Source of the DNA: an uncultured Alphaproteobacteria bacterium
GTDB lineage: Bacteria; Pseudomonadota; Alphaproteobacteria; ATCC43930; CGMCC-115725
Direction of reading: 5' to 3'
Length of the DNA stretch: 64,000 bases
Assembly: GCA_963789025.1 (NCBI GenBank)
Contig: CAWBIT010000004.1
Location: 253,041 to 317,040 of the forward strand
A program made the translations under genes and the position numbers. This document shows positions 10,467 to 54,742 of this stretch, one piece after another (position 1 is the stretch's first letter; each line of letters starts with the position of its first letter). Under the pieces are notes generated by a model. The model ran no database searches, was not told where the DNA came from, and was given only the letters and a program-made list of their open reading frames with translations.

Positions 10467-10756
10467 AAACGCAGCACTTTTTTGTCGACGAGATCCTGCA
10501 GCATCTTAATGACGTCGCTGGCGATGACGTCGCGCGGCGCGTCGTAGCGACCGGCGAGTTCGTCGATGACGCCGTCGATGGCGCGCTTCCCGTCGATCAG
10601 CTGCAGGATTTCAACGGCCTGCTCGTCAGGCAACATGAGCCGCTCCGGCGCGAGCACGATCCATGCCTGCCGAACCTCGTCGAAGCGGAACCTTGTGTGC
10701 GGGGCAAAGCGCAGAACGGTATCGCCCTCGACCGATAGACGCGGCTCGCCCGTCAT
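10463..10756 (-). CDS. pqqD: PQQ biosynthesis peptide chaperone PqqD
   Basis: 97 aa starting at MTGEPRLS. This ATG overlaps the pqqC stop (ATGA). The track ORF 10463-11068 over-extends into pqqC. Confidence 0.85.
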
Positions 10757-12462: not shown

Positions 12463-12543
12463 CTACTTGACCTCCGCACAGGCGTAAGCGTTGATCTCAA
12501 GCCCGACTGCGATTTCGATGATGACCGGCGTCTTCCACTTCAT
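12463..12543 (-). CDS. pqqA: PQQ precursor peptide PqqA
   Basis: 26-aa MKWKTPVIIEIAVGLEINAYACAEVK carries the conserved E-x-x-x-Y (EINAY) from which PQQ is made. It is hidden at the 3' end of the 93-aa track ORF 12463-12744. AAGGAA Shine-Dalgarno precedes the ATG at 12543. Confidence 0.9.
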   Translation of the reverse strand: MKWKTPVIIEIAVGLEINAYACAEVK

Positions 12544-13398: not shown

Positions 13399-14049
13399 TC
13401 AGCGGACGGGAGGAGGGCCGGTATCGCAATCGGCCAGACCGTGCTGAATGGCGATGCGGATTAAATCGGCGGTGCTCTCCGCCCGCAGCTTCGCTTTGAT
13501 TTGGCTGCAGTTGTTCGCAGCAGTCTTGTATCCGATGCCGAGTGTGTCGGCGATTTGGACGAGGTTGCGGCCTTGCGTCAGCAAACGCAGGATTTCGAGA
13601 TCGCGCGAGGAGAGGTCTTCGAGCGGGTGCGGTGGGGTTCGGATGCTCGAGAATACGAGTTCTTCGGCAATCTCGTGTTCGACATAGGTGCGACCGCCGG
13701 CAACGCGTCTGATTGCTTCGAGAAGCTCTTCCGGAGGGACGGTCTTGCTGGCATAGCCCGCTGCCCCCGCCTGCAGCGCGCGCGTCACATGGATACGGTC
13801 GTCGTGCATGCTGAGAACCAGAATGCGCGCATCAGGATCAATGATCTTCAGGCGCGCGATGATCTCGAGACCGCTGATATCGGGCAAGTTCAGATCGAGG
13901 ATGACGAGGTCTGGGCGCCTTCTCCGGAAGGCGCCCAGCGCCTCTTTTCCGCTCGCCGCCTCCTCAACCTCCACTGCCGGCTCGGCGGCGAGCAATCGTC
14001 GCAATCCGGCCCGGACTATCGGGTGATCATCGACGATCAGAATCTTCAC
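13399..14049 (-). CDS. Response regulator, NarL/FixJ (LuxR-type HTH) family
   Basis: MKILIVDDHPIVRAGL receiver domain with the phospho-acceptor Asp context (DLVILDLNLPD) and a C-terminal LuxR HTH (LTQGRNLVQIADTLGIGYKTAANN). Confidence 0.9.
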   Translation of the reverse strand: MKILIVDDHPIVRAGLRRLLAAEPAVEVEEAASGKEALGAFRRRRPDLVILDLNLPDISGLEIIARLKIIDPDARILVLSMHDDRIHVTRALQAGAAGYASKTVPPEELLEAIRRVAGGRTYVEHEIAEELVFSSIRTPPHPLEDLSSRDLEILRLLTQGRNLVQIADTLGIGYKTAANNCSQIKAKLRAESTADLIRIAIQHGLADCDTGPPPVR

Positions 14050-15467
14050 GGCTCGGCCGACTGCACCGAGGAGGATAGCGGGTCCGACGTCTGCAGATCG
14101 GGCAGCACGGCGACCACCGCGAAGCCTTCGTTGGATTTGTTCGAAATGCTCAAGCGCCCACCGACCGCGCTGACGCGCTCGCTTATGCCAATGAGGCCAT
14201 AACCCAATTTGTCCGGGTCGCGCATTCCCCGGCCGTCATCCGCGACCGTGAGCCTGATCTCGTCGCGTTCCCGCTCGATCGAGATGGCAATGCAGTTGGG
14301 TTCGGCATGGCGCAGGGCGTTGCTCAGAGCCTCCTGGACGATACGGCAGATCGCCGTCCCGACGACATCCACGAGATCCTCGCATTCCGCCGCGACCGCC
14401 ATCTCGTAACGGATCTCGGGACGGCGGCGGCGCCAGAATGCGACCAAATTCTCGATCGCCTCGCGCAAGCCAAATTCGGCGAGCCCGATCGGGCGCAACC
14501 GGCCGAGCATGCGTCTGACCTGCCGTTGCATGTGGCGAACGGCCTCGACGATCGACCCGACATGGAGGGCGGCCTCGCTCGCGCGACCATCCTCTATCAG
14601 CCGGCAGGCGGTAGCCGCGTCGGCGTTGATCGCGAAGAGATAGGGGCTCACCTCATCGTGCAGGTCGCGGGCGAGCTCGCTGCGCTCCTCCTCCTGCAAC
14701 GTCAGAAGCCGCTCGTTAAGACGGCGGTTCTCGGCGGCGGCTTCCGCAAGCCGCGCCGCCATCCGATTGAAACTGTCGCGCAACCGCGCCAGGTCCGGCG
14801 CCAGCCGGCCGCCGATCCGGATAAGGTAATGGCCGTCGCCGACCTCCTCCAGCGCAGCGGCCAGCCGGTCGAGCGGCCGCAAAGTGCGGCCGATAAAAAC
14901 ATAAATGAGCAGGATCGTGAGACCGCCGAACACGGCGAGGGTCGCAAGGCTCTCGGCGAGCTCGTTCCAGACTTCGAGCGTCTCGTTGTACGGATCGGTC
15001 TCGATCACGATCGTGCCGTAATCGCGGCCGCCGACGGCGATAGGGATTTGCTCGGTCTCGGGCGAAACTCCGATGAGGCGCACAAACCATGCCGGCGGGC
15101 GGCCGAATTTCGATTTCTCCATGGACGGCGCGGCGAAGGCCGGCGTCTCCCCGGCGTGCCGTACCCGCAGGTGACGATTGCCCTGGAAGGACGCCACCAA
15201 ATCATCGACATCGCGCGACGGGTCTCGGGCGTTCTGAAGGCGGTCGATCGCGCTCTCGATGGTCTGTCGCCCGACCAGAAAGGCCGCGCGCATCTCGGTA
15301 CGAACCGAGCGCGAGGCGTTGGAATACGCGGTTATGCCGGCCAGCGCGAGGCTGATCAGCAGCACGACGCAGACCAGGCCGATCAGACGGAACCGAAGCG
15401 ACATAGGGGGCCCGCCGGGCGTTGCATATCCGACTTTGCAGGATGCCATTACCCGATACCGATGCAT
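14046..15467 (-). CDS. Sensor histidine kinase, NarX/DesK-like (HAMP + HisKA_3 + HATPase)
   Basis: H-box LARDLHDEVSPYL, G-box DDGRGM...GYGLIGISERV, two TM segments and an overlap with the downstream regulator. An alternative start at 15404 (MSLRF) is possible. Confidence 0.85.
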   Translation of the reverse strand: MHRYRVMASCKVGYATPGGPPMSLRFRLIGLVCVVLLISLALAGITAYSNASRSVRTEMRAAFLVGRQTIESAIDRLQNARDPSRDVDDLVASFQGNRHLRVRHAGETPAFAAPSMEKSKFGRPPAWFVRLIGVSPETEQIPIAVGGRDYGTIVIETDPYNETLEVWNELAESLATLAVFGGLTILLIYVFIGRTLRPLDRLAAALEEVGDGHYLIRIGGRLAPDLARLRDSFNRMAARLAEAAAENRRLNERLLTLQEEERSELARDLHDEVSPYLFAINADAATACRLIEDGRASEAALHVGSIVEAVRHMQRQVRRMLGRLRPIGLAEFGLREAIENLVAFWRRRRPEIRYEMAVAAECEDLVDVVGTAICRIVQEALSNALRHAEPNCIAISIERERDEIRLTVADDGRGMRDPDKLGYGLIGISERVSAVGGRLSISNKSNEGFAVVAVLPDLQTSDPLSSSVQSAEP

Positions 15468-15591
15468 ACCGCTTCCAGTGGGAAGTTTTGCCGTGCTGAT
15501 CGGGAAGAATTTCCGGGCAAATCGGGAAGGCGCGGCGACGAGTAGTCTGGCTTAATGGTTGCGGTGGGGGACGGACCCGATGAGCTGAGCA

Positions 15592-17919
15592 ATGCCCGAC
15601 CTCAGGCACGTGTTACAAGCGCTCGGCTTGGCAACGGTCCTGCTCTCTGGCGCCGCGGCGGCGCAACAACCCGCCGCGGCGCCGGCGCTGAGCCTGCCCA
15701 CCGTGGAGGTGGTCGGCGCGACGCCGCTCCTCGGCTCCGGGGTCGATCGCGACAAGGTGCCGGCCGAGACGCGGGTTCTCACCGACCAGGACATCAGCCG
15801 GAACGGCTACCCGCAAGCATTGCGCGCGCTCAACGAGAACGTGCCGGGCGTCACGCTCGATGCCGCCGCCGGCAATCCGTTTCAACCCAACCTCGTCTAT
15901 CACGGTTTTCTCGCCTCGCCCCTGCAAGGCAATCCGCAAGGCCTCGCGGTCTATGTCAACGGGGTCCGTTTCAATCAGCCGTTCGGCGACACGGTCAATT
16001 GGGATTTGATCCCCGACCTCGCGATCGACCGCATGGACCTCGTCGGCTCCAACCCTGTCTTCGGTCTCAACGCCCTCGGCGGCGCATTGTCGGTGCGGAT
16101 GAAAAACGGGTTTACCTACCAGGGCGGCGAGGTTGACCTGCTGGGCGGCTCGTTCCAGCACTATCAGGGAAACCTGCAATACGGCATCCAAAGCGACAAT
16201 ACCGCGGCCTATGTCGCAGTCACCGGCCTGGATGAAGGCGGCTGGCGCGATCTGCAATCATCCGACCTCGGCAATTTTTACGGCGATCTCGGCTGGCGCG
16301 GCAATCACGGCGAAGTCCATATCAATGTTACTGCGGCCCAGACGCGGCTCAACGGCCCCGGCACCTCACCGGTCCAGCTGCTGGCGATCGATCCCGCTGC
16401 GCAGTTCACCGCTCCAAATCTGATCACCAACAAGTATACGCAAGCCAATCTGACCGGGTCTTACGATATCAACGACACAACCTCGCTGCAGGGGCTGGCC
16501 TACTACACCTTTCTCTTGCAGAAGGTCTATAACGGCAATGTTCCGAATCTATCACCGTGCAATGACGGCTCCGGCTTTCTATGCGAGGCGCCGGGTGTCT
16601 TCGGGACCGATCGCAATGGCAACCCGATCCCCGATTTTCTCAATGGCGGCCCTTATTCCGACCTCGACCAGCAGTCGACCAATACCAACGGCTATGGCGC
16701 CTCGCTTCAGGTTACCAACCGCGACCAGCTCTTTGGTCATCCCAACCAGCTGATCGCAGGCTTCAGCTTCGACGGCGCCCAGACCCTGTTCAGCGCGAGC
16801 ACGCAAATCGGCGGATTATCTTTGTCAGATCGTGTGTTCGCCGGACCCGGGATCACCATCGATCAGGCCGATGGTTCGATCGCGCCGGTGCGCGTCGGGA
16901 TCTCCAACGCTTATTACGGCGCGTTCTTCACCGACACCTTGGATTTCACCTCGCAACTTTCAGGTAACGTGGCCGGGCGCTTCAATCTCGCGCAAATCGA
17001 TTTGAACGATCAGCTGGGTAGCGCGTTGACCGGGAATCACACCTACAGCCGCTTCAACCCGGCTGGCGGGCTGACCTACAAGATCCTTCCCGCTCTGACG
17101 GTCTATGCCAGTTACGCCGACGCCAATCGGGCGCCAACTCCGGCGGAACTTACCTGCTCCAGTGCCGCCAGCCCATGCAGCCTCGCCAATTTCTTCACCG
17201 GCGACCCCAATTTGCAGCAGGTCGTTTCGCACACGATCGAGGCGGGTCTGCGCAGTCAGTTTCAGCCCTTCGAGGGCGCGACCCTGTCTTCGAACATCGC
17301 CTATTATCGCAGTACCTTGAACAACGACATCCTGTTCGTGAACAGTCCGATCCAGGGCCGTGCGTTCTTTCAGAATGTCGGGACGACTCTTCGCCAAGGG
17401 GTCGATATCGGTGTCCAGCTCAAGACCGACCGCTTGCTCGCCTGGATCGCCTATTCCTATATCGACGCAACGTTCCAGACCGGCTTTACGGCGTCCAGCA
17501 ACAACAACCCGGGCGCCGACGCCAACGGTAATATCCAAATCCAGCCTGGCAACCATTTGTCCGGCATCCCCGCCAATCTCGGCAAGCTCGGCGTCGATTA
17601 TAAGGTAACCGACGCCTGGACGGTCGGCGGGACGGGGATAGCGGGCAGCGGGCAGTACCTGTTCGGCGATGAAGCCAACCTGACCCCGAAGACCCCGCCC
17701 TATTTTGTGCTCAACCTGCATACCAGTTATCAGATCTCCAAAAACCTGCAGCTCTTCGGGCTGATCGAGAACGCGTTCAACGTCAGATATTACACTTTCG
17801 GCACCTTCTCGCCGACTTCGTCCGTGTTCATCGCCCAGGCACCGGGCGCCACCAACCCGCGCAGCTATAGCCCGGCCGCACCGATCGCCGGCACCGTCGG
17901 CGTCCGCCTTACCTTTTGA
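15592..17919 (+). CDS. TonB-dependent outer-membrane receptor
   Basis: Signal peptide, plug-domain motifs (...VEVVGATP..., NPQGLAVYVNGVRFN), a long beta-barrel with alternating pattern, and a C-terminal ...GVRLTF. Confidence 0.9.
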   Translation: MPDLRHVLQALGLATVLLSGAAAAQQPAAAPALSLPTVEVVGATPLLGSGVDRDKVPAETRVLTDQDISRNGYPQALRALNENVPGVTLDAAAGNPFQPNLVYHGFLASPLQGNPQGLAVYVNGVRFNQPFGDTVNWDLIPDLAIDRMDLVGSNPVFGLNALGGALSVRMKNGFTYQGGEVDLLGGSFQHYQGNLQYGIQSDNTAAYVAVTGLDEGGWRDLQSSDLGNFYGDLGWRGNHGEVHINVTAAQTRLNGPGTSPVQLLAIDPAAQFTAPNLITNKYTQANLTGSYDINDTTSLQGLAYYTFLLQKVYNGNVPNLSPCNDGSGFLCEAPGVFGTDRNGNPIPDFLNGGPYSDLDQQSTNTNGYGASLQVTNRDQLFGHPNQLIAGFSFDGAQTLFSASTQIGGLSLSDRVFAGPGITIDQADGSIAPVRVGISNAYYGAFFTDTLDFTSQLSGNVAGRFNLAQIDLNDQLGSALTGNHTYSRFNPAGGLTYKILPALTVYASYADANRAPTPAELTCSSAASPCSLANFFTGDPNLQQVVSHTIEAGLRSQFQPFEGATLSSNIAYYRSTLNNDILFVNSPIQGRAFFQNVGTTLRQGVDIGVQLKTDRLLAWIAYSYIDATFQTGFTASSNNNPGADANGNIQIQPGNHLSGIPANLGKLGVDYKVTDAWTVGGTGIAGSGQYLFGDEANLTPKTPPYFVLNLHTSYQISKNLQLFGLIENAFNVRYYTFGTFSPTSSVFIAQAPGATNPRSYSPAAPIAGTVGVRLTF

Positions 17920-18015
17920 AGATCCTCTCCCGCCCACCCGGCGATTAACGATATTGCCGGGTCCGCTCCTTCGGAGATAGAATCCCGCGGTCGGCATCAC
18001 CCTGGGAGGCACGCC

Positions 18016-18468
18016 ATGGTCAAGTTGCGCGTCAACGGCCAGGAACAGTCGTTCGACGGCGATCCGTCGATGCCGCTGCTCTGGTACTTGCGGGACGAGT
18101 TGGGGCTCGCCGGAACAAAGTACGGCTGCGGCGTCGCGCTGTGCGGGGCGTGCACCGTGCACGTCGACGGCCAGGCCACCCGCGCCTGCGTCACCGCGAT
18201 CAACGATGTTTCGGGCCGCTCGGTGACGACGATCGAGGGGCTCGATCCGCAAGGCAACCACCCGGTGCAGAAGGCGTGGCGCGCCTTCAATGTCCCGCAA
18301 TGCGGGTATTGCCAGTCCGGCCAGATCATGCAGGCCGCCGCGCTGCTCGCCACTAACAAGAACCCGTCCGAGGACCAGATCAACAGCGAGATGAGCGGCA
18401 ACATCTGCCGCTGCGGCTGCTACCAGCGCATCACCGCCGCCATCAAGGCGGCCGCCACGGGAGCGTGA
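18016..18468 (+). CDS. (2Fe-2S)-binding small subunit of a molybdopterin oxidoreductase (IorA / aldehyde-dehydrogenase small-subunit type), copy 1
   Basis: [11 protein letters not shown] and NICRCGCY cluster motifs. 150 aa. Confidence 0.9.
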
Positions 18469-18469
18469 C

Positions 18470-20755
18470 ATGAGCGCCGTCCACGCCACCATCGAGAATG
18501 TGAGCCGCCGCGGCTTCCTGCGGGGCTTGATCGCGACCGGCGGCCTGGTCGTCGCCGCCGAATTCGTGCCGGCCCGCGCCGCGCTCGCGACCTTCGCCAC
18601 CGGCGCGGCCAAAATGCCCGGCGGGGTCGTCAGCGACCCGCATGTCTTTGTCTCGATCGACCCCAGCGGCCTCGTGACGATCGTCGCGCACCGCGCCGAG
18701 ATGGGCACCGGCTCGAAGACCAGCCTGCCAATGGCGGTCGCGGACGAGCTCGAAGCCGACTGGTCGCGCGTGAAGGTCGTGCAATCGCCTGGCGATGAGA
18801 AGAAATACGGCAACCAGAACACCGACGGTTCGCGCAGTCTGCGCCATTTCATCCAGCCGATGCGCGAATGCGGCGCCGCAGCGCGGCTCATGCTCGAAAT
18901 CGCCGCCGCGCAGCGCTGGAACGTTCCGGTCAGCGAGGTGCAGGCGCAGAACCATGAGGTCATCCACAAGCCCTCGGGCCGCAAGCTCGGCTATGGCGAC
19001 CTCGCGGCCGCCGCGAGCGCATTGCCGATGCCGCCCGCCGACCAGATCAAGCTCAAGGACGAATCCGCGTTTCGCTATCTCGGCAAAGGCAACGTCCAGA
19101 TCGTCGATCTGTTCGACATCACGACCGGCCGCGCCGTCTACGGCATCGACACCAGGCTCGCCGGGCTGAAATATGCGGTCATTGCGCGGCCGCCGGTCAT
19201 GGGCGGCAAGCTCGCCTCCTATGACGGCAGCGCCGCGATGAAGGTGCCGGGCGTCGAGAAGATCGTCGTCATCGAGGGCACGCCGCCGCCATCGAAGTTT
19301 CAGCCGATCGGCGGCGTCGCGGTCATTGCCCGCAACACCTGGGCGGCAATCAAGGGGCGCGACGCGCTGGTCATCAAGTGGGATGACGGGCCGCACGCCA
19401 GTTACAATTCGGCCGCTTACAAGGCCCAGCTGGAAGAAACCGCGCGCAAGCCGGGTAAGGTCGTGCGGGATGAAGGCGATGCCGAGAAGGCCCTAGGATC
19501 CGCTGCGAAGATGGTGTTCGCGGAATATTACGCCCCGCATCTCGCTCATGCCCCGATGGAGCCGACTTGCGCGACGGCGCGCGTCGCCAACGGCAAGTGC
19601 GAGGTTTGGGCGGCAGTGCAGAGCCCCGGCGGCACGCAAAACGAGCTGGTCGAGAAGCTTGGCCTCAAGCCGGAAGATGTGACGGTCAACGTCACCCTGC
19701 TCGGCGGCGGCTTCGGCCGGAAGTCAAAGCCCGACTTTGTGCTCGAGGCGGCATTGCTGTCGCGCGAGATGGGAGGCGCCCCGGTCAAAGTCACATGGAC
19801 GCGCGAGGACGACCTCCACCACGATTATCTGCACACGGTCTCGGCCGAGCGCATCGATGCCGGGCTCGACGCGCAAGGCCACGTCGTCGCTTGGCGCCAC
19901 CGCACCGTCGCGCCGACCATCCGGGCCACCTTTGTCCCGGACCCGAAATTCGAGACGCCAGGGGAGCTCAGCCTAGGCGTGCTCGACGTGCCGTTCAATA
20001 TCGCCAACCTGCGTTGCGAGGTGGGCGAAGCCGAGGCGCACACCCGCATCGGCTGGTTCCGCTCGGTGTCGAACATCCCGCACGCCTTTGCGATTCAGTC
20101 GTTTGTCGCCGAGCTCGCCCATGCGGCAGGACGCGACCCCAAGGACATGCTGATCGAGCTGCTCGGGCCGTCGCGGCTCGTGAAGCCGCCCGCCGAATAC
20201 ACCAATTACGGCGACCCGCTCGAAACCTACCCGATCGATACGGCGCGATTGCGGCGCGTCGTCGATCTCGTCGCCGACAAGGCGGAATGGGGCAAGAAAT
20301 TGCCGCCCAGGCACGGCCAGGGCATCGCTGTGCATCGCAGCTTCTTGAGCTATGTCGCCACCGTCGTCGAGGTTGCGGTCGACGACAAGGGAAAGCTGAC
20401 GGTGCCGCGCGTCGACAGCGCGATCGATTGCGGCTTTGCCGCCAACCCCGAGCGTATATACTCGCAAGTGGAAGGGGCGGCGGTGATGGGGCTGAGCCTC
20501 GCGCGCTATGGCGAGATCAGCTTCAAGAACGGGCGCGTCCAGCAAAACAACTTCGACGGCTTTCAGGTCCTGCGCATCGACGAGTCGCCGCCGATCACGC
20601 ATGTCTGGATCGTGCCCAACGGGATCGACGTGCCGTCGAGCGGCGTCGGCGAGCCGGGGTTGCCGCCCTTCGCGCCGGCTTTGTGCAACGCGATCTTCGC
20701 CGCGACCGGCAAACGTATCCGGCGTCTGCCGATCGGCAACCAGCTGGCGACCTGA
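18470..20755 (+). CDS. Molybdopterin-binding large subunit (IorB / xanthine-dehydrogenase family), TAT-exported, copy 1
   Basis: Twin-arginine leader [24 protein letters not shown] and GVGEPGLPP motifs of the aldehyde-oxidase/XDH family. Starts 1 nt after the small-subunit stop. Confidence 0.9.
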
Positions 20756-20854
20756 CGTTTGGCACCGGGCGGGGTCCCCGCTCGGCGCCATAGCCGCATC
20801 GATGCGCGCCGCCGGCGCTGGCAGTATATCTTGGCATCGCAAAAAAAATCGGTG

Positions 20855-20918
20855 CCGGGGCTTTAATATGAGATCAGCAAGGGAGGCCGGGGCTTTAATA
20901 TGAGATCAGCAAGGGAGG
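20855..20918 (+). repeat. Perfect 32-bp tandem duplication spanning the Shine-Dalgarno of the PQQ dehydrogenase
   Basis: CCGGGGCTTTAATATGAGATCAGCAAGGGAGG occurs twice back-to-back (20855-20886 and 20887-20918), ending 6 nt before the ATG at 20925. Confidence 0.95.
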
Positions 20919-20924
20919 AAGCCT

Positions 20925-22649
20925 ATGCGAATGCAAAAATGGATGTGGGGCGGCTTGGCGGCAGCATCGGCTCTATGGTCGTTAGCTGCGGCTGCCGCCG
21001 AGATCGGCAACTACAGCCCGGTCACAGCCGACCGGCTCACCAACCCCGAACCCGGCAACTGGATGCTCTACCGCCGCACCTATGACGGCCAGGGCTACAG
21101 CCCGCTCGACAAGATCAACACGACCAACGTCAAGAGCCTGGAGCCGGCGTGGACATTTTCGACCGGCGTCATCGAAGGTCACGAGGCGCCGCCGATCGTC
21201 AACAACGGCGTCATGTTTGTGGCGACGCCGATGAACCAGGTCATCGCCCTCGACGCCAAGACTGGCGACCAAATTTGGCGCTACAAGCGGGAATTGCCCG
21301 AAGACCTGACGCAGCTGCATCCGACGAGCCGCGGCGTCGGGCTCTGGCAGGACAAGCTCTACCTCGCCACCACCGATGATCACCTGGTGGCGCTCGACGC
21401 CAAGACCGGCAAGGTGGCGTGGGACCAGAAGGTCCAGGATTACAAGAAGGGACAGTACATGACCTTGATGCCGTTGGTGGTTAACGGCAAGGTCCTCGTC
21501 GGTGGCTCGGGCGGCGAATATGGCGTACGCGGCTATGTCGTCGCCTATGACGCCAACGACGGCAAGGAACTGTGGCGCACCTTCACCATTCCCGGGCCAG
21601 GTGAGCCCGGCCACGAGACCTGGCAGGGCGACGACTGGAAGAGCGGCGGCGGCTCGGCCTGGATGACCGGAAATTACGATCCCGCCCTGAACCTCGTGTA
21701 CTGGGGCGTCGGCAACGCCGCGCCGTGGCCCGGCGACCTGCATCCCGGCGACAACCTTTACACCAGTTCGGTCCTGGCGCTCGATCCCGGCTCCGGAAAG
21801 ATCAAAGCCTACCACCAGTACCACCCGAACAACTCGTGGGACTGGGACGAAGTCGAGGCGCCGATGCTGATCGATCTGCAAAAAGACGGGCAGACGATCA
21901 AGAGCCTCGTCCATCCCGGCCGCGACGCCATTTTCTGGGTGTTGGAGCGCAAGCCGGACAAAATCGATTTTGTCGCGGGATGGCCGTTTGTTTACACCGA
22001 CGTGTGGAAGTCGATCGACCCTGAGACCGGCAAGCCCACCGCCGACCCCGATCACAAGCCCGCGCTCGGTAAAAAGATCGCGTTCTGCCCCTCGCTGTGG
22101 GGCGGCAAGGACTGGCCGTCCGCCGCCTACAGCCCGAAGACGCACTTGGTCTACGCGCCGGCGCAGAATAACTTCTGCGGCAGCTTTGTCGGCGCCAAGG
22201 AGCCGCTCGAGCCCGGCAAGCTGTGGCTCGGGACAAAAGAATCGGACATCCTCTTAACCGAGCGTCCGGGCGCGGATCACTTCGGCGAACTTCAGGCCTG
22301 GGACCCGGCGACCGGCAAGAAGGCATGGCAGCATAATTTCCGCTGGCAGCTGATGGCCACCGTACTCGCCACCGGTGGCGACCTCGTCTTTGTCGGCGGC
22401 ACCAACGACCGCATGTTCCGCGCCTTCGACGCCAAGACCGGAGACCTGCTGTGGGAGCAGAAGACCAACTCCGGCATTACCGGCGCCCCCGTCGCCTTTG
22501 CGGTCGACGGTACGGAATACATCGCCGTGCAGTCCGGCTGGGGCGTTGACGCCGAGCGCATCCAGGACAAACTGGCGCAAGCCAATATCGGCGTCAGCGA
22601 CAACGTTCCCCAGGGCGGCGTCGTCTGGGTGTTCAAGGTGAAGCAGTAG
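20925..22649 (+). CDS. PQQ-dependent dehydrogenase, methanol/ethanol (type I ADH/XoxF-like) family, atypical, copy 1
   Basis: Signal peptide and eight-bladed propeller W-motifs (...APPIVNNGVMFVAT..., GGSGGEYGVRGYV, GGGSAWMTG, DNLYTSS, SWDWDEV). Confidence 0.9.
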   Translation: MRMQKWMWGGLAAASALWSLAAAAAEIGNYSPVTADRLTNPEPGNWMLYRRTYDGQGYSPLDKINTTNVKSLEPAWTFSTGVIEGHEAPPIVNNGVMFVATPMNQVIALDAKTGDQIWRYKRELPEDLTQLHPTSRGVGLWQDKLYLATTDDHLVALDAKTGKVAWDQKVQDYKKGQYMTLMPLVVNGKVLVGGSGGEYGVRGYVVAYDANDGKELWRTFTIPGPGEPGHETWQGDDWKSGGGSAWMTGNYDPALNLVYWGVGNAAPWPGDLHPGDNLYTSSVLALDPGSGKIKAYHQYHPNNSWDWDEVEAPMLIDLQKDGQTIKSLVHPGRDAIFWVLERKPDKIDFVAGWPFVYTDVWKSIDPETGKPTADPDHKPALGKKIAFCPSLWGGKDWPSAAYSPKTHLVYAPAQNNFCGSFVGAKEPLEPGKLWLGTKESDILLTERPGADHFGELQAWDPATGKKAWQHNFRWQLMATVLATGGDLVFVGGTNDRMFRAFDAKTGDLLWEQKTNSGITGAPVAFAVDGTEYIAVQSGWGVDAERIQDKLAQANIGVSDNVPQGGVVWVFKVKQ

Positions 22650-22697
22650 CCCCCTCCCATTCCCTCCCCCGCAAACGGGGGAGGGTTAGGGTGGGGG
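22650..22697. repeat. REP-like palindromic element (type A variant)
   Basis: CCCCCTCCCATTCCCTCCCCCGC-AAA-CGGGGGAGGGTTAGGGTGGGGG begins at the base after the dehydrogenase stop. Confidence 0.7.
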
Positions 22698-22773
22698 CTT
22701 GGCGGCGGCAAGGTCGTCGCCGGGGTATTTTTACTGTATGCAACGCCTCTGGGCAGACGAGGGAGGAGACCCG

Positions 22774-23226
22774 ATGGTCAAGTTACAGGTCAACGGCCAG
22801 GCGCAGTCCTTCGATGGCGATCCATCGATGCCGCTGCTCTGGTATCTGCGGGATGAGCTGGGGCTCACCGGGACGAAATACGGCTGCGGCGTGGCGCTGT
22901 GCGGCGCCTGCACGGTCCATATCGACGGTCAAGCCTCGCGTGCTTGTGCCACGGCGATAAGCGATGTCGCCGGGCGCTCGGTGACGACGATCGAGGGGCT
23001 CGATCGCGACGGCAATCACCCGGTACAGAAGGCTTGGCGCGCCTTGAATGTTCCGCAATGCGGCTACTGCCAAGCCGGGCAGATCATGCAGGCCGCGGCG
23101 CTGCTGGCGACGACGAAGAATCCGTCCGAGGCCGAGATCAACGACGCCATGAGCGGCAACATCTGCCGCTGCGGCTGCTACCAGCGCATCACCGCCGCTA
23201 TCAAGGCGGCTGCCACAGGAGCCTGA
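22774..23226 (+). CDS. (2Fe-2S)-binding small subunit, copy 2
   Basis: [31 protein letters not shown]... is nearly identical in pattern to 18016-18468. Start set at the ATG at 22774, preceded by GGGAGGAG; the track start at 22699 lies in the REP element. Confidence 0.9.
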
Positions 23227-23227
23227 C

Positions 23228-25579
23228 ATGACCCCAGTCCACGTCGTTATCGAGAATGTCAGCCGCCGTGGCTTCCTCAAGGGAGTGCTCGCCACCGGCG
23301 GTCTCGTCATCGCCGCCGAGTTTGTGCCGGCGCGGTCCGCGCTCGCCGCTTACACCACCGGCGCCGGGAAGATGCCTCACGGCGTAAAGTGGGATCCCCA
23401 CATCTTTGTTTCGATCGCGCCCGACGGCACCGTGACCATCGTTGCCATTCGCTCGGAGATGGGCACCGGCTCGCGCACCAGCCTGCCGATGGTCGTCGCC
23501 GACGAAATGGAAGCCGATTGGTCGCGCGTGCGCGTTGCGCAAGCGCCGGGCGACGAGGAGAAATACGGCAATCAGGACACCGACGGCTCGCGCAGCCTGC
23601 GCCACGGCATCCAGCCGATGCGCCAATGCGGCACCGCCATCCGGCAGATGCTGGAGACCGCCGCAGCGCAGCGCTGGGGCGTCGATCCCGGCGAGGTCCA
23701 GGCGCAGAACCACGAGGTCGTACACAAACCCTCGGGGCGCAAGCTCGGCTATGGCGAGCTGGCCGCCGACGCCAGCGCCCTGCCGACGCCACCGGTCGAT
23801 CAAATCAAGCTCAAGGATCCCGCCGCCTTCCGGTACATCGGGAGGGGCACGACGCCGATCGTCGATCTCTTCGACATCACCACCGGGCGTGCGATCTACG
23901 GTATCGATGCCAAGCTTCCCGGTATGAAATATGCGGTCGTCGCCCGGCCGCCGGTGTTCGGCGGCAAGGTCGTGTCCTTCAATTCCGATGCCGCGATGAA
24001 GATCCCGGGCGTCGAGAAGGTCGTGACCATCGAGGGCACGCCAGCGCCGGCCAAGTTCCAGCCCCTGGGCGGAGTCGCGGTCATCGCGGGCAATACCTGG
24101 GCGGCGATCAAGGGACGCGAGGCACTCCAAGTGACCTGGGATGACGGTCCGAACGGCTCCTACAATTCGGCGGCTTTCAAAGCGCAGATCGAGGAGACGG
24201 CACGCCAGCCGGGCAAGGTCGTGCGCAACGACGGCGACGCCGAGAAGGCGCTGGCGTCGGCCGCCAAGGTAGTCTCGGCAGAGTATTACATCCCGCACCT
24301 CGCGCATGCGACGATGGAGCCGCCGAGCGCAACCGTGCGCATGAGCACCGAATCGACCAACCAGACTGTCGGCGAGTCTACAATGCGGATGGGCGCCGGC
24401 GGGAAGTGCGAGGCTTGGGCCTGCGTGCAAAGCCCCGGCAACACGCGGGAAGAACTCGCCAAGAAGCTCGGTTTGAAAGAAGAGGACGTGACCGTCCATG
24501 TCACGCTGTTGGGCGGCGGCTTCGGCCGCAAGTCGAAATGCGATTTCGTTCTCGAAGCGGCGGTACTGTCGAAGGCGATGGGCGGCGCTCCGGTGAAAGT
24601 GATCTGGACGCGCGAGGACGACCTGCGGAACAGCTACTACCACACCGTCTCCGCCGAACGCATCGATGCCGGCCTCGATGCGACCGGCAAGGTGATCGCC
24701 TGGCGGCATCGCAGCGTCGCACCGACCATCTTGTCGATCTTCAAACCCGACCAGACGCACGAGGCGCCGTTCGAGCTGGGCATGGGCTTGGTCGACGTGC
24801 CGTTCGACATCCCCAACCTGCGCTGCGAGAACGGCGAGGCGGAGGCCCATACGCGCATCGGCTGGTTCCGCTCGGTGTACAACATCCCGCACGGCTTCGC
24901 CGTCCAGTCCTTCGCCGCCGAGCTCGCCAACGCAACCGGGCGCGACCCCAAGGAGATGCTGCTCGCGCTGATCGGGCCGCCCCGCATCGTCGATCCCCGC
25001 AAATCGCCCGACGTCGCCGATTTCTGGAACTACGGTGACCCGTTCGAGACCTACCCGATCGACACCGCGCGGCTCACGCGTGTCGTCGAGCTCGTGGCGC
25101 AGAAGGCAGACTGGGGCCGCAAGCTGCCGGCGCGGCATGGTCTCGGCATCGCCGTCCATCGCAGCTTCCTCACCTATGTCGCGACCGTCGTCGAAGCGGC
25201 AGTGGACCAGAAGGGCCATGTGACGGTGCCGCGGGTCGACACCGCGATCGATTGCGGCTTCGCCGCCAATCCCGAGCGCATTCGCTCACAGATCGAAGGC
25301 GCGGCGGTGATGGGGATGGGTCTCACGCTCTATGGCGAGATCACGTTCAAAAAAGGCGGCGTCGAACAGAGCAACTACGACGGTTACCGAGTGCTTCGCA
25401 TCGACGAGTCGCCGCCGGTCACCGATGTGCATATCGTCCCCAATGGAATCGAGGTGCCGTCGAGCGGCGTCGGTGAGCCGGGGCTGCCGCCTTTTGCGCC
25501 GGCGCTGTGCAACGCGATCTTCGCCGCCACCGGCAAGCGCATCCGCCGCCTGCCGGTCGGCGATCAGCTGGCGGCGTAG
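23228..25579 (+). CDS. Molybdopterin-binding large subunit, TAT-exported, copy 2
   Basis: [15 protein letters not shown] twin-arginine leader. Collinear with 18470-20755 apart from a ~17-codon insertion near 24343-24393. Confidence 0.9.
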
Positions 25580-25620
25580 GGGCCGGTCGGGGATGCTTAC
25601 CGCGAGGCATTGCGCCCTTT

Positions 25621-25727
25621 CACTCGTCATTCCGGCGAAAGCGGGAAGCCAGGGATAGCGACGGTGCCAGTTGCCCCCTGTTCAAGCCAGGGGCAGGCTC
25701 TGGACCCCCGCTTTCGCGGGGGCGACG
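25621..25727. repeat. REP-like element (type B, 'VIPAKAGIQ / LDPRFRGGD'-coding type)
   Basis: GTCATTCCGGCGAAAGCGGGAAGCC ... CCCGCTTTCGCGGGGGCGACGG. Inverted arms GCGAAAGCGGG (25635-25645) and CCCGCTTTCGC (25707-25717). Confidence 0.7.
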
Positions 25728-25729
25728 GC

Positions 25730-26323
25730 TTGTGCTTGGGGGAATGGGGTGGTCGTGATTGTCCGTGCAGTGCCCGCCCGATCGACCGGCGCAGGGCGCT
25801 TGAGTTGGGGCTGGGCCTCGCGCTCGTGCCCGGTCTGGCGTTGGCGCAAACCGATGCGGCGCACGAACGGCCGCGCGAAGGCGATGTTTTGGTCGTGGTT
25901 GGTGCTACTCCCCCGGAGCCGCTGAAACCCGACGATTTGAAGCTCGACGCCAAACAGACTTTCGCGTGGCCGATGGATCCTGAGACCAAGACCGTGCGCA
26001 ACGGCTCGCGGCTCAACAAGGTGCTGCTATTGCGCCTCGACCCTGAAGGCTTCGACACCGAGACCAAGGAGCGTACCGCTGACGGTGTTGTCGCCTATTC
26101 GGCGATATGTGTGCACACCGGTTGTGACGTGACCAGCTGGGACCCCAATCGCCAGCTGCTCCAATGTCCCTGTCATTACTCGACTTATGATCCGAAGGAA
26201 GCGGCTAAGGTTGTGAGTGGGCCGGCGCCACGACGCCTGCCGGCGCTGCCACTGAAAATCGTCGATAGCCGGCTAGTCGTTGCAAAGCCGTTCACTGGAC
26301 GGGCCGGTTTCCAACAGATGTGA
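25730..26323 (+). CDS. TAT-exported Rieske (2Fe-2S) domain protein
   Basis: CVHTGCDV...CPCHYSTYD Rieske ligands and a twin-arginine leader IDRRRALELGLGLAL. The start is uncertain (TTG at 25730 or 25736); the track ATG at 25610 lies inside the REP element. Confidence 0.75.
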   Translation: MCLGEWGGRDCPCSARPIDRRRALELGLGLALVPGLALAQTDAAHERPREGDVLVVVGATPPEPLKPDDLKLDAKQTFAWPMDPETKTVRNGSRLNKVLLLRLDPEGFDTETKERTADGVVAYSAICVHTGCDVTSWDPNRQLLQCPCHYSTYDPKEAAKVVSGPAPRRLPALPLKIVDSRLVVAKPFTGRAGFQQM

Positions 26324-26349
26324 CCCCAAGAAAATCGAGGAGAGACGCC

Positions 26350-28128
26350 ATGCAGAAAAAACGTCATCGCCATTACGTGCTCGCGGCGAGCGGGTTGGCG
26401 CTGGTATTGGCCGCTGCAACAGCCTCGGCGCAGCAGCCGCTGCCGCCGCTGCCGACGCCGGACACGCCACCTCCGGTGCCGCCGATATTGCAGAGCTACA
26501 AGCCTGTGACACCGGACGAGCTCAAACAGCCGCAAGATGGCGACTGGCTGATGTACCGCCGCACCTATAATGGCTGGGGCTATAGTCCCCTGTCGCAGAT
26601 CACGGCGGAAAACGTCGGCAAGCTGAAACCAGTGTGGACCTTGGCGACTGGTCAGGTCGAAGGCCACCAGGCGCCGCCGATCGTCAACAACGGCGTGATG
26701 TTCGTCGCGACCCCGGGCAATCAGGTGCTGGCCATCGACGCCAAAAAGGGTGACGTGCTGTGGCGGTTCAAGCGGCCAATCCCGGAAGACATGCTGCTGC
26801 TGCACCCGACGAGCCGCGGTGTCGCCCTGCTCGGGGACAAGGTTTACTTCGCCGCGGCCGATGCCGTGCTCGTGGCGCTCGATGCCAAGACCGGCAAGGA
26901 GGTTTGGAAGGCGCCGGTCGAAGACTACACGCACGGATATTATATGTCATTGGCACCGCTCGTCGCCGACGGCAAGGTGATGGTCGGCGTCTCGGGCGGC
27001 GAACTCGGTGTTCGCGGCTTTGTCGCTGCGTTCGACGCCGAGACCGGCAAACCGCTCTGGAAAACCTACACCGTACCGGCGCCCGGCGAACCGGGCAGCG
27101 AGACCTGGCCCAAGGGCGACCAGTGGAAGACAGGCGGCGGCTCGGTGTGGATTACCGGCGCCTACGATCCCGAAACAGGTCTCAGTTTTTGGGGGACCGG
27201 CAATGGCGGGCCGTGGATGGGGGACCAACGGCCGGGGGACAATCTCTACACCTCATCCGTGCTGGCGCTCGACACTGCGACCGGCAAAATCAAGGGATAC
27301 CATCAATATCACCCCAACGACTCGTGGGATTGGGACGAAGTCTCGCCGCCGATCCTCGTCGATTACCAGCACAATGGTAAGACGATTAAGGGTCTCGTCG
27401 ATGTCGCACGGGACGGCTATCTCTGGGAGCTTGAGCGCACCCCTGACAAGATCAACTTCATAGACGGCAAGCCCTTTGTGAAGCAGAACGTCTTCCTCAG
27501 TCTCGATCCCGAGACCGGGCGGCCCAATGTCGACCCCACTCGCCAACCGGCGACGGGAAAGAAGGCCGATTTCTGTCCTTCGCTGTGGGGCGGCAAGGAT
27601 TGGCCGCCGGTCGCCTACAGCCCGAAGACACGGTTATTGTATATCCCCGCGAATGACAATCTGTGCGGCACATCGATTGGCGAACCAGTCACCTACACCC
27701 CGGGGCAACGTTATGTAGGGGCAACGACAACCCTCTATATCGCGCCGGGCGCCGATCACATCGGCGAGCTGCAAGCCTGGAACCTCGATACCGGACAGAA
27801 GGCCTGGAGCCATCCCTTTGCCAACTCGCAGCTCTGGGGCCCAGTGCTCGCGACGGCCGGCGGGGTCGTGTTCGCGGGCGGCACCAACGACCGGTATTTC
27901 CGCGCCTTCGACGCCTCGAACGGCAAGACCTTATGGGAATTCCGCACCAGCTCCGGGGTGAATGGGGTGCCGGTCTCGTTCCAGATTGACGGCAAGCAAT
28001 ACATCGCCGTGCAGTCGGGCTGGGGCGTCGACGCGGCACGCATGCAGGCCCGCCTCAACCTGGTGCGCCCGTGGGAGTTCCCTGATGTGCCGCAGGGCGG
28101 CTCGGTCTGGGTGTTCGCCGTCGATTAG
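26350..28128 (+). CDS. PQQ-dependent dehydrogenase, methanol/ethanol family, atypical, copy 2
   Basis: The ATG at 26350 is preceded by GAGGAGAG; the track ATG at 26320 overlaps the Rieske stop and remains an alternative. Signal peptide and the same propeller motifs as copy 1 (SWDWDEV, LHPTSRG). Confidence 0.9.
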   Translation: MQKKRHRHYVLAASGLALVLAAATASAQQPLPPLPTPDTPPPVPPILQSYKPVTPDELKQPQDGDWLMYRRTYNGWGYSPLSQITAENVGKLKPVWTLATGQVEGHQAPPIVNNGVMFVATPGNQVLAIDAKKGDVLWRFKRPIPEDMLLLHPTSRGVALLGDKVYFAAADAVLVALDAKTGKEVWKAPVEDYTHGYYMSLAPLVADGKVMVGVSGGELGVRGFVAAFDAETGKPLWKTYTVPAPGEPGSETWPKGDQWKTGGGSVWITGAYDPETGLSFWGTGNGGPWMGDQRPGDNLYTSSVLALDTATGKIKGYHQYHPNDSWDWDEVSPPILVDYQHNGKTIKGLVDVARDGYLWELERTPDKINFIDGKPFVKQNVFLSLDPETGRPNVDPTRQPATGKKADFCPSLWGGKDWPPVAYSPKTRLLYIPANDNLCGTSIGEPVTYTPGQRYVGATTTLYIAPGADHIGELQAWNLDTGQKAWSHPFANSQLWGPVLATAGGVVFAGGTNDRYFRAFDASNGKTLWEFRTSSGVNGVPVSFQIDGKQYIAVQSGWGVDAARMQARLNLVRPWEFPDVPQGGSVWVFAVD

Positions 28129-28159: not shown

Positions 28160-29314
28160 CTATCCCGCCGCCCGCGTTGGCGCATGGGCGAATGCCCGCG
28201 CGATCGCCTCATAGGCGGGCTTGGGCTTGAGGTCGGCATCGAAGGGCAAAGGCCGCGACGGCGAATCGTCGGCTCGCCACTTCGATTGATACGTCTCGCG
28301 CCGTACGATCCAGCTGTGCCTGTCCGATAAGCCCCACGTCACCACCATCTTGACCGCCGGCTCGTCGAGTGCAGCGTCCAGAAACCGGCTATAGGTATCC
28401 GCCACCAGCTGGTCCCGAATGGTGCGATCCGCGGGCGCGTGCTCGTCGGTGACATCGAGCTCGGTAATCTGGATCGTAAGGCCGAGATCCGCGATGTCCT
28501 TCAGAAGCTGCCGCAGGCGGGAAGCCGAAAACGGCGGTCCGCCGGCGCATGCCAGATGGGCCTGAATGCCAACCGCATCGACCGGCGTCCCGGACCGCTG
28601 CATTCGCTGAAGAAGATCGAGGAGCGCAACCCGGCGTGCTTCCTGCTCCGGCGCATCCAATTCGATATCGTATTCGTTGACGACGAGGCGTGCGGCGGGG
28701 TCGGCCTCGCGTGCGGTGCGATAAGCGAGATCGAGATAACCCGGCCCCATCATTTCGAGGAACACACCAATGCGCAGGCCGTCCGGCCTCCCGTCCTTGG
28801 GTTCGATCGGTTCGTTGACGACATCCCAGCTGTGAACCCTTCCGCGATAATGGCCTGCCAGACTGTGGATGCGCTCGACGATCGCGCTTTCCATTTGCCG
28901 CGGCGTTTCCAAATCAAAAAACCAGCTGGGAGTGCGGTGGTACCATAAGAGGTTGTGCCCGCGCAGAACGAAGCTATTTTTCAGCGCAAAATCTGCAATT
29001 GTGTCAGCGGGACCATAATCGTCGTCGCCGGGCTTGCCTCAATTCATGACCTGCCACTTCATCTCGTTCTCGGCGACAACGAGTCCGGCTTGCTGCAGCA
29101 CGAGCTCGACAAATTCGCGGTCGCCGGTGATCTGCGCCGCAGAAATGGTGGTCCCGTAGAGCAGCCCCTTTTCCGCCGCGAGCTTGCACAAGGCCAAGAT
29201 CTCTGCGGCATTGCCAGATAACGGTACCGCCAACCCGGTGCCGCACCCGATGGTCGCAAGGCCCGCGGCAATAAAATGCCGCCTATTCAGATGCCCAAAT
29301 TTGCAGCAACTCAT
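28160..29314 (-). pseudogene. Glycoside hydrolase family 10 (endo-1,4-beta-xylanase-like) gene interrupted by one in-frame TGA
   Basis: The N-terminal piece (29039-29314) has a TAT leader NRRHFIAAG and the AENEMKW motif. The C-terminal piece has WDVVNEP (acid/base) and ITELDV (nucleophile). Re-translation shows both are in the same frame, separated only by TGA at 29039-29041. Confidence 0.6.
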
Positions 29315-31105: not shown

Positions 31106-31945
31106 TCATCGAATATAACGTGATTTTGGCGAGTCGACATCCCGGTTTGATTGAAGACGCTCGATGTTCGCTTTGGCAGCCATGTCTGCCTGGCTGCCGG
31201 GAGCCAATTGCCCCACCCGCTCCCAATCTCGAAGGGCTCCCTCGTTATCGCCCTTCAGACGGCGGATGTTGCCGCGTTCCAGCACCGCCGGCGCGGAATT
31301 CGGCGCGCGCGCTATTGCCTTCTCGACATCGGCGAGCGCGGGGTCGAGCCGATCGAGGGCGCGGTTTGCCGAGGCGCGGTAGATCAGCGCGTCGACGCGC
31401 GACGGGTCCGCCTTCAAGACATGGTCGAGATCGGCTACTGCTTTGTCATAGTATCCCACCGATGCGGCCGCTTGCGCCCGGTCGATCAGCAGATCGAGGT
31501 CATTAGGCTCGAGGGCAACCGCCGCTCCGGCCGCCGCATAGGCGCGCGCCGGATCGCCAGCCAAGCCCCAGGCCTGCCCAGCCTGGTCGAGTACCTCGGC
31601 GCGCAACGCGGCCGGCGCCGTTATCGCTTGCGCCAGCGCTTCGAGGCGAACCGCCGCCTCCTTGTATTGCTTCAGGCCGATCAGTGCGACGGCGACGCAA
31701 TGATCGGCCGGATGCGCGCCGCCGCGCTCGTGCCAGCTCTGCCCGAGGCTGCGGGCCTCCACCGGATTTTGCCGGGCCAGCTTCATGCAGCGCTCATACG
31801 TCGCCGCCTCGGCCGCCGCGTCGCGTGGCGCAGCAGATTGCACGGGCGGCTCGGCTGCCGAGGCTTTCACCCACGCCACGAACAGCAGGCCGCACAACGC
31901 AAGAATCATCAAAGGATTGCGATTGCCCGAGGACAAGCTTATCAA
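31106..31945 (-). CDS. Exported tetratricopeptide-repeat protein
   Basis: Signal peptide LMILALCGLLFVAWVKASAAE followed by degenerate 34-residue Ala/Leu/Tyr-patterned repeats. Confidence 0.65.
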   Translation of the reverse strand: MISLSSGNRNPLMILALCGLLFVAWVKASAAEPPVQSAAPRDAAAEAATYERCMKLARQNPVEARSLGQSWHERGGAHPADHCVAVALIGLKQYKEAAVRLEALAQAITAPAALRAEVLDQAGQAWGLAGDPARAYAAAGAAVALEPNDLDLLIDRAQAAASVGYYDKAVADLDHVLKADPSRVDALIYRASANRALDRLDPALADVEKAIARAPNSAPAVLERGNIRRLKGDNEGALRDWERVGQLAPGSQADMAAKANIERLQSNRDVDSPKSRYIR

Positions 31946-31974
31946 CTCCCAGTTTGTTCAGCCGGAGGACGAGA

Positions 31975-52164: not shown

Positions 52165-52249
52165 GAGTGTTCTCCTCCGTATGACGAAGCGAGGGCCTGG
52201 GTACACATGTACCTCGGCCCCGAGCCGGCCCGCAACTCGGAGATCCATT

Positions 52250-54742
<2,493 letters not shown>

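Follow-up and report, generated by a model that had tools for sequence, protein, structure and literature searches.

Positions 18016-28128 of a 64-kb stretch of DNA from an uncultured alphaproteobacterium (contig CAWBIT010000004.1; the whole stretch is the window below) carry seven genes that may encode a periplasmic module for the oxidation of alcohols to aldehydes and on to acids, with a Rieske protein replacing cytochrome c. Judged by sequence comparison, the case for this reading is, in our view, evenly balanced. The module would comprise dehydrogenases dependent on pyrroloquinoline quinone (PQQ) that lack the vicinal disulfide ring, a molybdenum enzyme of the IorAB type, a bc1-like Rieske protein exported by the twin-arginine translocation (TAT) pathway, and support genes (pqqABCDE, a MoxY-like two-component system and a TonB receptor). 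Calls of open reading frames (ORFs) combined with Pfam and NCBIfam searches gave seven genes in this region, not six, all on the forward strand:

18016-18468, forward strand: iorA1, 150 amino acids (aa), leaderless small subunit with two [2Fe-2S] clusters (Fer2 and Fer2_2)
18470-20755, forward strand: iorB1, 761 aa, molybdopterin subunit with twin-arginine leader SRRGFLRG (MoCoBD_1 and MoCoBD_2)
20925-22649, forward strand: PQQ1, 574 aa, periplasmic PQQ dehydrogenase of the 'type 1' subfamily
22774-23226, forward strand: iorA2, 150 aa, second small [2Fe-2S] subunit (Fer2 and Fer2_2)
23228-25579, forward strand: iorB2, 783 aa, second molybdopterin subunit with TAT leader (MoCoBD_1 and MoCoBD_2)
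25736-26323, forward strand: Rieske [2Fe-2S] protein, about 195 aa, with twin-arginine leader (PF00355)
26320-28128, forward strand, likely start ATG 26350: PQQ2, 592 aa, periplasmic PQQ dehydrogenase of the 'type 2' subfamily

The Rieske ORF (a match to PF00355) lies in the 740-bp 'gap' between iorB2 and PQQ2 and was missed by the first-pass annotation, a reading of the sequence without database searches. That annotation had the order iorA-iorB-PQQ dehydrogenase occurring twice, which holds for the first run and fails for the second, where the Rieske ORF intervenes. It had also called the electron outlet unconventional or encoded elsewhere; the outlet is not simply elsewhere: the locus itself has the gene for a conserved Rieske protein, which is the probable outlet. 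Other parts of the description stood. The two copies are collinear and homologous with the PQQ enzymes most diverged, protein identities being 88% for iorA, 74-76% for iorB and 61% for PQQ, far above chance (83%, 74-78% and 70-72%, respectively, at the DNA level). Leaders, which we judged by eye from the sequence, are of the TAT type on both molybdenum subunits, each of which opens with SRRGFL[RK]G, and of the Sec type on both PQQ enzymes, with a basic start, a hydrophobic stretch and an Ala-rich site. The reported absence of a CxxCH heme motif extends to the full window: open frames of 80 codons or more contain no C..CH on the forward or the reverse strand, and looser CxnCH matches fall solely in implausible frames. 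There is no cognate cytochrome c gene just outside the region, with no heme gene within 18 kb on one side and 36 kb on the other, and neither a second Rieske gene nor a heme gene was found elsewhere in the 64 kb. Rfam and tRNA scans of the window returned no matches.

The Rieske protein carries the only Rieske motif in the window, CVHTGC...CPCHYSTYDP. Its leader (IDRRRALELGLGLALVPGLALA, then QTD) contains a twin-arginine signal (IDRRRALELG...LALA, then QT; RRRALELG), and the Ala-x-Ala-like end of the leader, judged by eye, suggests that the protein is cleaved and soluble. Translation starts at either TTG 25730 or TTG 25736, with some uncertainty. A 172-aa database entry (P0241), apparently a product of the window itself, would match initiation at TTG 25805, in which case the RR motif is lost; since homologs are 191-214 aa long and have the RR motif, one of the two upstream codons is the likelier start. 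The Rieske stop codon lies 26 nt ahead of the PQQ2 ATG, which is preceded by a GGAGAG ribosome-binding site. All 86 homologs compared have a twin-arginine leader and the pattern CxHxGC...CxCHxSx[YF]DP, with cluster ligands and disulfide cysteines kept. The RR leaders therefore point to export into the compartment of the Sec-exported PQQ enzymes and TAT-exported IorB.

The closest solved structure is the Rieske protein of the Thermus thermophilus bc complex (1NYK, 9e-37, about 150 residues aligned; also 3FOU), with which the window protein shares CxHxGC...CxCH, the disulfide cysteines and Ser plus Tyr/Phe after the second box. In bc1 Rieske clusters, Ser and Tyr at these positions are reported to make the potential higher. 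The genes beside the Rieske gene in the window and related loci, however, are iorB and a PQQ dehydrogenase, not cytochrome b or c1. Curated models of known families were not reached by the protein: it scored 88.9 bits against a cut-off of 275 for QcrA, 33.3 against 97.4 for the proteobacterial Rieske model, 44.9 against 250 for PetC and 51.9 against 95.65 for the AioB model TIGR02694. Its family counts 111 representatives at E <= 1e-30 in a library clustered at 50% identity, and homologs are annotated at source merely as 'Rieske Fe-S protein'. The best 150 listed representatives are all stand-alone proteins of fewer than 300 aa, and no fusion to a PQQ or molybdenum-cofactor domain was found in these 150 or in the 120 closest homologs. 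The spacer between iorB2 and the Rieske gene is filled by an inverted repeat resembling repetitive extragenic palindromes (25625-25727), with 28-nt arms (CGTCATTCCGGCGAAAGCGGGAAGCCAG ... CTGGACCCCCGCTTTCGCGGGGGCGACG), which overlaps the 5' portion of the Rieske ORF in its long form initiated at TTG.

In textbook accounts, a soluble alcohol or methanol dehydrogenase of the PQQ type has a PQQ and metal site, a vicinal disulfide ring and a c-type cytochrome dedicated to it. Both PQQ proteins of the window exceed the cut-off of TIGR03075 (PQQ-dependent dehydrogenase, methanol/ethanol family), at 616.8 bits for PQQ1 and 577.9 for PQQ2 against 480.05. The top Protein Data Bank match of PQQ1 is the lanthanide enzyme PedH (6ZCV, 1e-103), with 8GY2 chain A also related (1e-83), and the ring segment PCCDVINRG of PedH aligns opposite L-HPTSRG. 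Our alignment held 132 PQQ enzymes taken from the 82 related loci, comprising 88 members of the clade that includes PQQ1 and PQQ2 and 44 others. The vicinal Cys-Cys is missing from 88 of 88 clade members through a 3-residue deletion (QL---HPT[SN]RG versus VMCCDTVNRG in XoxF-like neighbors), so the type I alcohol dehydrogenase label of the first-pass annotation does not fully apply to PQQ1 and PQQ2. The PQQ and metal-site columns GGEFG, GNAAPW, WDWDE, GRD and AW, which hold the Glu, Asn, catalytic Asp, Arg and stacking Trp, are kept in all 88. Where they have WDWDE, PedH has WDFDG and the XoxF-like neighbors WDYDG, meaning that the lanthanide-type extra Asp is present, and this DxD pattern suggests that the clade enzymes use lanthanides. 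The 44 others all have 'CC' together with WDYDG, which marks them as XoxF-like.

Orthologs of PQQ1 are 76-94% identical to it, the best being from metagenome-assembled genomes of Stellaceae (94% and 93%) and those of Bradyrhizobium reaching 76-78%; the PQQ2 ortholog clade spans 75-95% identity and is mostly 592 aa in length. Just 5' of PQQ1, a 32-bp sequence (GCCGGGGCTTTAATATGAGATCAGCAAGGGAG) is perfectly duplicated in tandem (20854-20917; 100% identity), which doubles the ribosome-binding site of the gene. The duplication is absent in the closest relatives of the window, the loci L003 and L004 (L-numbers denote related loci compared with the window), and so is recent. By synteny, the sequences themselves not having been compared, Bradyrhizobium diazoefficiens bll6220 may be a clade member; it is annotated as 'PQQ-dependent alcohol dehydrogenase' and has been detected in bacteroid proteomes (PMC2575884, PMC6320959). 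On the same synteny basis, bll6221 and blr6217-6218 of strain USDA110 are candidates for the Rieske gene and iorAB, respectively.

To survey neighborhoods, we mapped six-frame ORFs of the 82 genome loci by phmmer, which yielded 84 clade PQQ genes. An intact Rieske gene lies directly upstream on the same strand in 81 of the 84 and a frameshifted copy in one more, the two exceptions being those of L003 and L004. Ring-bearing PQQ genes of the same loci (n=44) have an adjacent same-strand CxxCH ORF in every case and an adjacent Rieske gene in none, whereas ring-less ones have an adjacent Rieske gene in 82 of 84 cases and an adjacent same-strand CxxCH ORF in one; 81 of the 82 Rieske-linked genes are without an adjacent CxxCH ORF. 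No other gene accompanies this PQQ clade as constantly as the Rieske gene. Tandem Rieske-PQQ pairs occur in single Bradyrhizobium loci (L012, L062 and L037, the last with one PQQ copy fragmented), so duplication of the pair appears recurrent.

The gene iorB is found in the locus for about 66 of the 84 clade PQQ genes, in four arrangements in all. It lies downstream and convergent in 54 (typical of Bradyrhizobium), downstream on the same strand in 7 and upstream in 5. The functional link that the first-pass annotation drew between PQQ and molybdenum enzymes thus gains comparative support, the genes being neighbors in these loci of Bradyrhizobium, Stellaceae and Acidisphaera despite changes in order and orientation. 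In L002, L083, L084 and L085, iorAB and the Rieske-PQQ pair form a same-strand four-gene unit. A second survey, seeded with the Rieske protein, covered 80 soil-metagenome loci. Of these, 49 have a PQQ gene directly downstream, nine of them with iorB directly upstream as well; iorB is directly upstream in 28 in total (the same nine, 14 without PQQ downstream and five whose downstream flank is too short). Just one locus judged on both sides had neither neighbor, and in the remaining 11 the flank was too short on one side or both.

Taken together, the tie between the Rieske protein and the PQQ enzyme is the strongest, based on adjacency, matching clades, a loss of the ring that correlates with the Rieske gene, and a shared export compartment. 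The tie between the Rieske protein and IorAB is weaker and draws on the four-gene units and on contigs with iorA-iorB-Rieske. A PQQ gene of another design stands 2 kb from the iorA-iorB-Rieske-PQQ2 unit of L084, a Stellaceae-like genome: it encodes a 690-aa dehydrogenase (13869-15941, reverse strand) with a C-terminal cupredoxin domain (PF00127, Copper-bind), by its domain match another non-heme redox partner, here fused to a quinoprotein.

For the molybdenum enzyme, the nearest solved relative is the membrane aldehyde dehydrogenase of Gluconobacter (8GY3). IorA1 matches chain B at 2e-58 (next solved structure 1e-35), and IorB1 matches chain C at 6e-82 over residues 10-755 (next 1.5e-30), an alignment that runs end to end and includes the TAT leader (SRRxFL) and the GxGEPG motif. 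Neither IorA nor IorB reached any NCBIfam equivalog cut-off, and the substrate assignment is accordingly a prediction: the similarity to 8GY3 and the neighboring genes for alcohol and formaldehyde handling point to an aldehyde. No multihaem cytochrome c third subunit is encoded, there being no heme motif in the window or in the four-gene units of L083-L085. In Pseudomonas putida, the PP_3621-3623 set of IorAB plus cytochrome c is listed among proteins that shift in abundance with lanthanum (PMC7188995). In Bradyrhizobium lupini (L045, 9231-20181), iorA and iorB end a run of a xoxF-like gene, a methanol-related cytochrome c gene (TIGR03874), flhA (TIGR02818) and gfa (TIGR02820) that is convergent to the Rieske-PQQ pair, as it is in about 45 other Bradyrhizobium loci; the place of iorAB in this run ties the molybdenum enzyme to a C1/formaldehyde gene cluster there. 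The window's iorB2 has a 51-nt in-frame insertion (24343-24393; 17 codons, 59% GC) that is specific to the window, occurring neither in iorB1 nor in the iorB2 orthologs of L003 and L004.

The analysis shows gene content, motifs, export signals and a conserved neighborhood. The mechanism that we propose goes further: its substrates, the use of lanthanides, the route that electrons take and between which partners, and the potential of the Rieske protein are all predictions. The PQQ enzyme would turn an alcohol into an aldehyde, which IorAB would then convert into the acid. Reduced PQQ (PQQH2) would give its electrons directly to the Rieske protein instead of a c-type cytochrome, the IorA clusters would probably donate to the Rieske protein as well, and the latter would pass electrons on to a carrier or oxidase encoded elsewhere. 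In its broader form, the proposal is of a clade of lanthanide-type PQQ enzymes without ring and cytochrome c that have a dedicated, probably high-potential Rieske acceptor, shared with a cytochrome-less IorAB to give a heme-free two-step chain. We put this forward tentatively, as possible but somewhat short of an even prospect.

Several points weigh against the proposed module. Support for it is wholly comparative, and there are fewer independent observations than the counts suggest, because Bradyrhizobium dominates the genome loci and the metagenome set includes near-identical contigs. No Rieske gene lies directly upstream of PQQ1 in the window, L003 or L004, and contigs resembling L004 have a Rieske gene after iorB2 with no PQQ gene downstream; with these contigs and the orphan PQQ1, the Rieske gene is not strictly tied to a PQQ gene. 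On the molybdenum side, iorB is absent within 10 kb in 18 of 84 cases (L001, L023 and L038 are examples), and in most Bradyrhizobium iorBA converges on the Rieske-PQQ pair and has the orientation of xoxF-xoxG-flhA-gfa, so the enzyme may act on aldehydes from other sources. The PQQ-Rieske pair does not stand out in distance-matrix correlations (0.89, compared with 0.83 for PQQ-IorB and 0.85 for Rieske-IorB), and the trees used below were built by neighbor joining (NJ) without bootstrap.

The genes could instead be neighbors that belong to separate pathways, IorAB acting on N-heterocycles or other non-aldehydes, and the PQQ enzyme and Rieske protein forming an unrelated system or the latter serving in maturation or regulation. 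In favor, the IorB family is named for isoquinoline 1-oxidoreductase, the chemistry of the xanthine-oxidase family is diverse, and the missing equivalog matches leave the substrate to prediction. We nevertheless consider this doubtful: the neighborhood survives at least four rearrangements across families of Alphaproteobacteria, the closest solved relative of both subunits is by a wide margin an aldehyde dehydrogenase, iorAB of Bradyrhizobium follows the formaldehyde-handling genes gfa and flhA, and the Rieske protein has retained all its cluster ligands and disulfide cysteines. Nothing was found that links the molybdenum enzymes to N-heterocycles.

It is unlikely, too, that the Rieske protein is a third subunit of IorAB only, as AioB is for arsenite oxidase, replacing the multihaem cytochrome c while the PQQ enzyme uses an unlinked acceptor. 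Rieske-PQQ pairs stand without iorB within 10 kb in the 18 of 84 cases given above, most Bradyrhizobium have iorBA on the strand opposite to a tight same-strand Rieske-PQQ pair, the Rieske clades track the PQQ clades, and loss of the ring correlates with the Rieske gene rather than with iorAB. What speaks for a subunit role is that iorA, iorB and the Rieske gene lie on one strand, only short gaps apart, in the window, L004 and L083-L085, that 14 metagenome contigs have iorB upstream and no PQQ gene downstream, and that arsenite oxidase is a precedent for a molybdenum enzyme with a TAT-exported Rieske subunit.

The weakest contender, which we rate as distinctly improbable, is the one closest to the first-pass annotation, in which an iorA-iorB-type I PQQ module was duplicated in tandem, its substrates diverged, a cytochrome c or azurin lies elsewhere and the Rieske gene is incidental: the repeated gene order, the collinear homologous pairs, the window's lack of a heme gene and the missing Rieske neighbor of PQQ1 fit it, but PQQ1 and PQQ2 are 61% identical to each other versus 75-95% to their own orthologs, the Cys-Cys ring that defines type I enzymes is absent, a Rieske adjacency of 82/84 in ring-less against 0/44 in ring-bearing genes is hard to call incidental, and both trees and gene order run against it. 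In the NJ tree, PQQ1-type and PQQ2-type enzymes form sister clades with PQQ2 as outgroup to the entire PQQ1/Bradyrhizobium clade, suggesting a split that predates that of Stellaceae and Bradyrhizobium. The division of the Rieske tree into R1 and R2, the latter including the window's protein, matches that between PQQ1-type and PQQ2-type enzymes. The PQQ copies are therefore two old subfamilies, each with its own orthologs and its own Rieske type, and not the products of local duplication and divergence that they had been taken for. IorB1 and IorB2 clades, by contrast, are sisters within the Stellaceae group, with IorB of type-1 pairs as their outgroup. From these trees only iorAB appears to be a lineage-specific duplicate, and it is to iorAB alone that the description as a tandem duplication applies.

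Gene order in relatives agrees with this. The order iorA-iorB-Rieske-PQQ2 is found in L083, L084 and L085, and L083 has pqqEDCB-TonB-iorA1-iorB1-Rieske-PQQ2, the last four genes without interruption, which is the window minus PQQ1-iorA2-iorB2. L004 has PQQ1, a DUF1194 gene, iorA2, iorB2 and a Rieske gene, and no PQQ2. Tandem duplication of a three-gene module was rejected on the identities, the trees and the L083 layout. The window would instead be a composite that started from an L083-like iorA-iorB-Rieske-PQQ2 unit; a second iorAB would have been gained by lineage-specific duplication, and a type-1 PQQ gene would have arrived without its own Rieske gene; PQQ1 is of that type and has no Rieske gene of its own here. 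No Rieske remnant was found between iorB1 and PQQ1, where the spacer is only 170 bp and not alignable with L003.

The genes upstream of the module include candidates for cofactor supply and regulation, and two putative transcription signals flank its genes:

9336-10466, reverse strand: pqqE
about 10463-10756, reverse strand: pqqD
10753-11496, reverse strand: pqqC
11493-12419, reverse strand: pqqB
12463-12543, reverse strand: pqqA
13399-14049, reverse strand: LuxR-type response regulator (Response_reg and GerE)
14046-15467, reverse strand: histidine kinase (LapD_MoxY_N, 29.8 bits against a cut-off of 25, with HAMP, HisKA_3 and HATPase_c)
15592-17919, forward strand: TonB-dependent outer-membrane receptor (Plug and TonB_dep_Rec_b-barrel), directly 5' of iorA1
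17954-17983: promoter-like site ahead of iorA1
22698-22724, forward strand: terminator-like hairpin with T-run between PQQ1 and iorA2 (a consensus match only)

The complete pqqABCDE cluster lies 6 kb upstream of the module and was recognized by Pfam matches (Radical_SAM with SPASM, TENA/PQQC, Lactamase_B_2) and, for pqqA, by translation, which gave a PqqA-like 26-residue peptide (MKWKTPVIIEIAVGLEINAYACAEVK); the same block adjoins the module in L083. Response regulator and histidine kinase are both conserved in L003, and orthologs of the TonB receptor stand directly upstream of iorA in L003 and L083. Identification of the receptor as the PQQ importer PqqU was rejected (71 bits against a cut-off of 1200); its cargo could be a lanthanide chelate or another cofactor. 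The receptor stretch has a lower GC content (0.596) and a negative GC skew.

The genes downstream of PQQ2 have no relation to the module; they encode a GH10 fragment, a histidine kinase and the components of two-partner secretion. The GH10 xylanase ORF (28160-28912, reverse strand), directly after PQQ2, matches profile positions 99-310 of 311 and may be 5'-truncated, since the match begins only at position 99. The secretion system consists of a ShlB-type transporter (31684-33753) and a TPS-domain exoprotein of 2252 aa (38908-45666, reverse strand) whose stretch reaches 73% GC, with a CHAT/TPR protein (34533-36890, reverse strand) between them. A type I restriction R subunit is encoded at 52181-55198.

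Acetic acid bacteria offer the closest parallel to the proposed chain. In Gluconobacter oxydans (8GY2 and 8GY3), the same logic operates on the periplasmic side, with a PQQ enzyme producing the aldehyde and a xanthine-oxidase-family molybdenum enzyme the acid, and 8GY3 chains B and C are collinear with the window's IorA and IorB, including the TAT leader. Those PQQ and molybdenum dehydrogenases deliver electrons to ubiquinone. They have c-type cytochrome subunits, whereas the window has no heme motif; compared with 8GY2, the window's PQQ enzymes have neither the heme domain nor the Cys-Cys ring, and the locus has a Rieske gene instead. Isoquinoline 1-oxidoreductase IorAB likewise pairs a small two-[2Fe-2S] subunit with a TAT-exported molybdenum-cofactor subunit and lacks an FAD (flavin adenine dinucleotide) subunit. 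The P. putida set PP_3621-3623 includes a cytochrome c subunit (PMC7188995), in place of which the window has the Rieske gene after iorB2.

Among quinoproteins, PedH/PedE, ExaA, XoxF-XoxG and MxaFI-MxaG share with the clade the eight-bladed PQQ propeller, Sec export and the Glu, Asn and catalytic Asp. The extra lanthanide-type Asp is common to the clade and PedH, and the window module has pqq genes and a MoxY-like sensor nearby. The PedH, ExaA and XoxF types have a vicinal ring and a cytochrome c, whereas in the clade the ring is deleted in 88 of 88 members and Rieske is the adjacent redox gene; XoxF-like enzymes of the same loci keep both ring and cytochrome. Arsenite oxidase AioAB is likewise a periplasmic molybdenum oxidoreductase beside a TAT-exported Rieske protein, feeding soluble carriers, although AioA belongs to the DMSO-reductase family and IorB to the xanthine-oxidase family, and the window's Rieske protein is nearer to those of bc complexes than to AioB. 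A full-text literature search, with many subscription papers outside its reach, turned up no publication that connects Rieske proteins with PQQ dehydrogenases; given this incomplete coverage, an earlier description may exist.

If the proposed module is real, it would be a heme-free periplasmic alcohol-to-acid chain of a kind not described before, and a ring-less clade beside a Rieske gene would give quinoproteins a redox partner of a new kind. Such a clade would also be a natural experiment on the purpose of the disulfide ring. Members of the clade are found in Bradyrhizobium, Stellaceae, Acidisphaera and many soil metagenome contigs, and they are common in agriculturally important rhizobia. 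Being common there and carrying the lanthanide-type Asp, the clade bears on the lanthanide-dependent share of alcohol and aldehyde turnover in soil.

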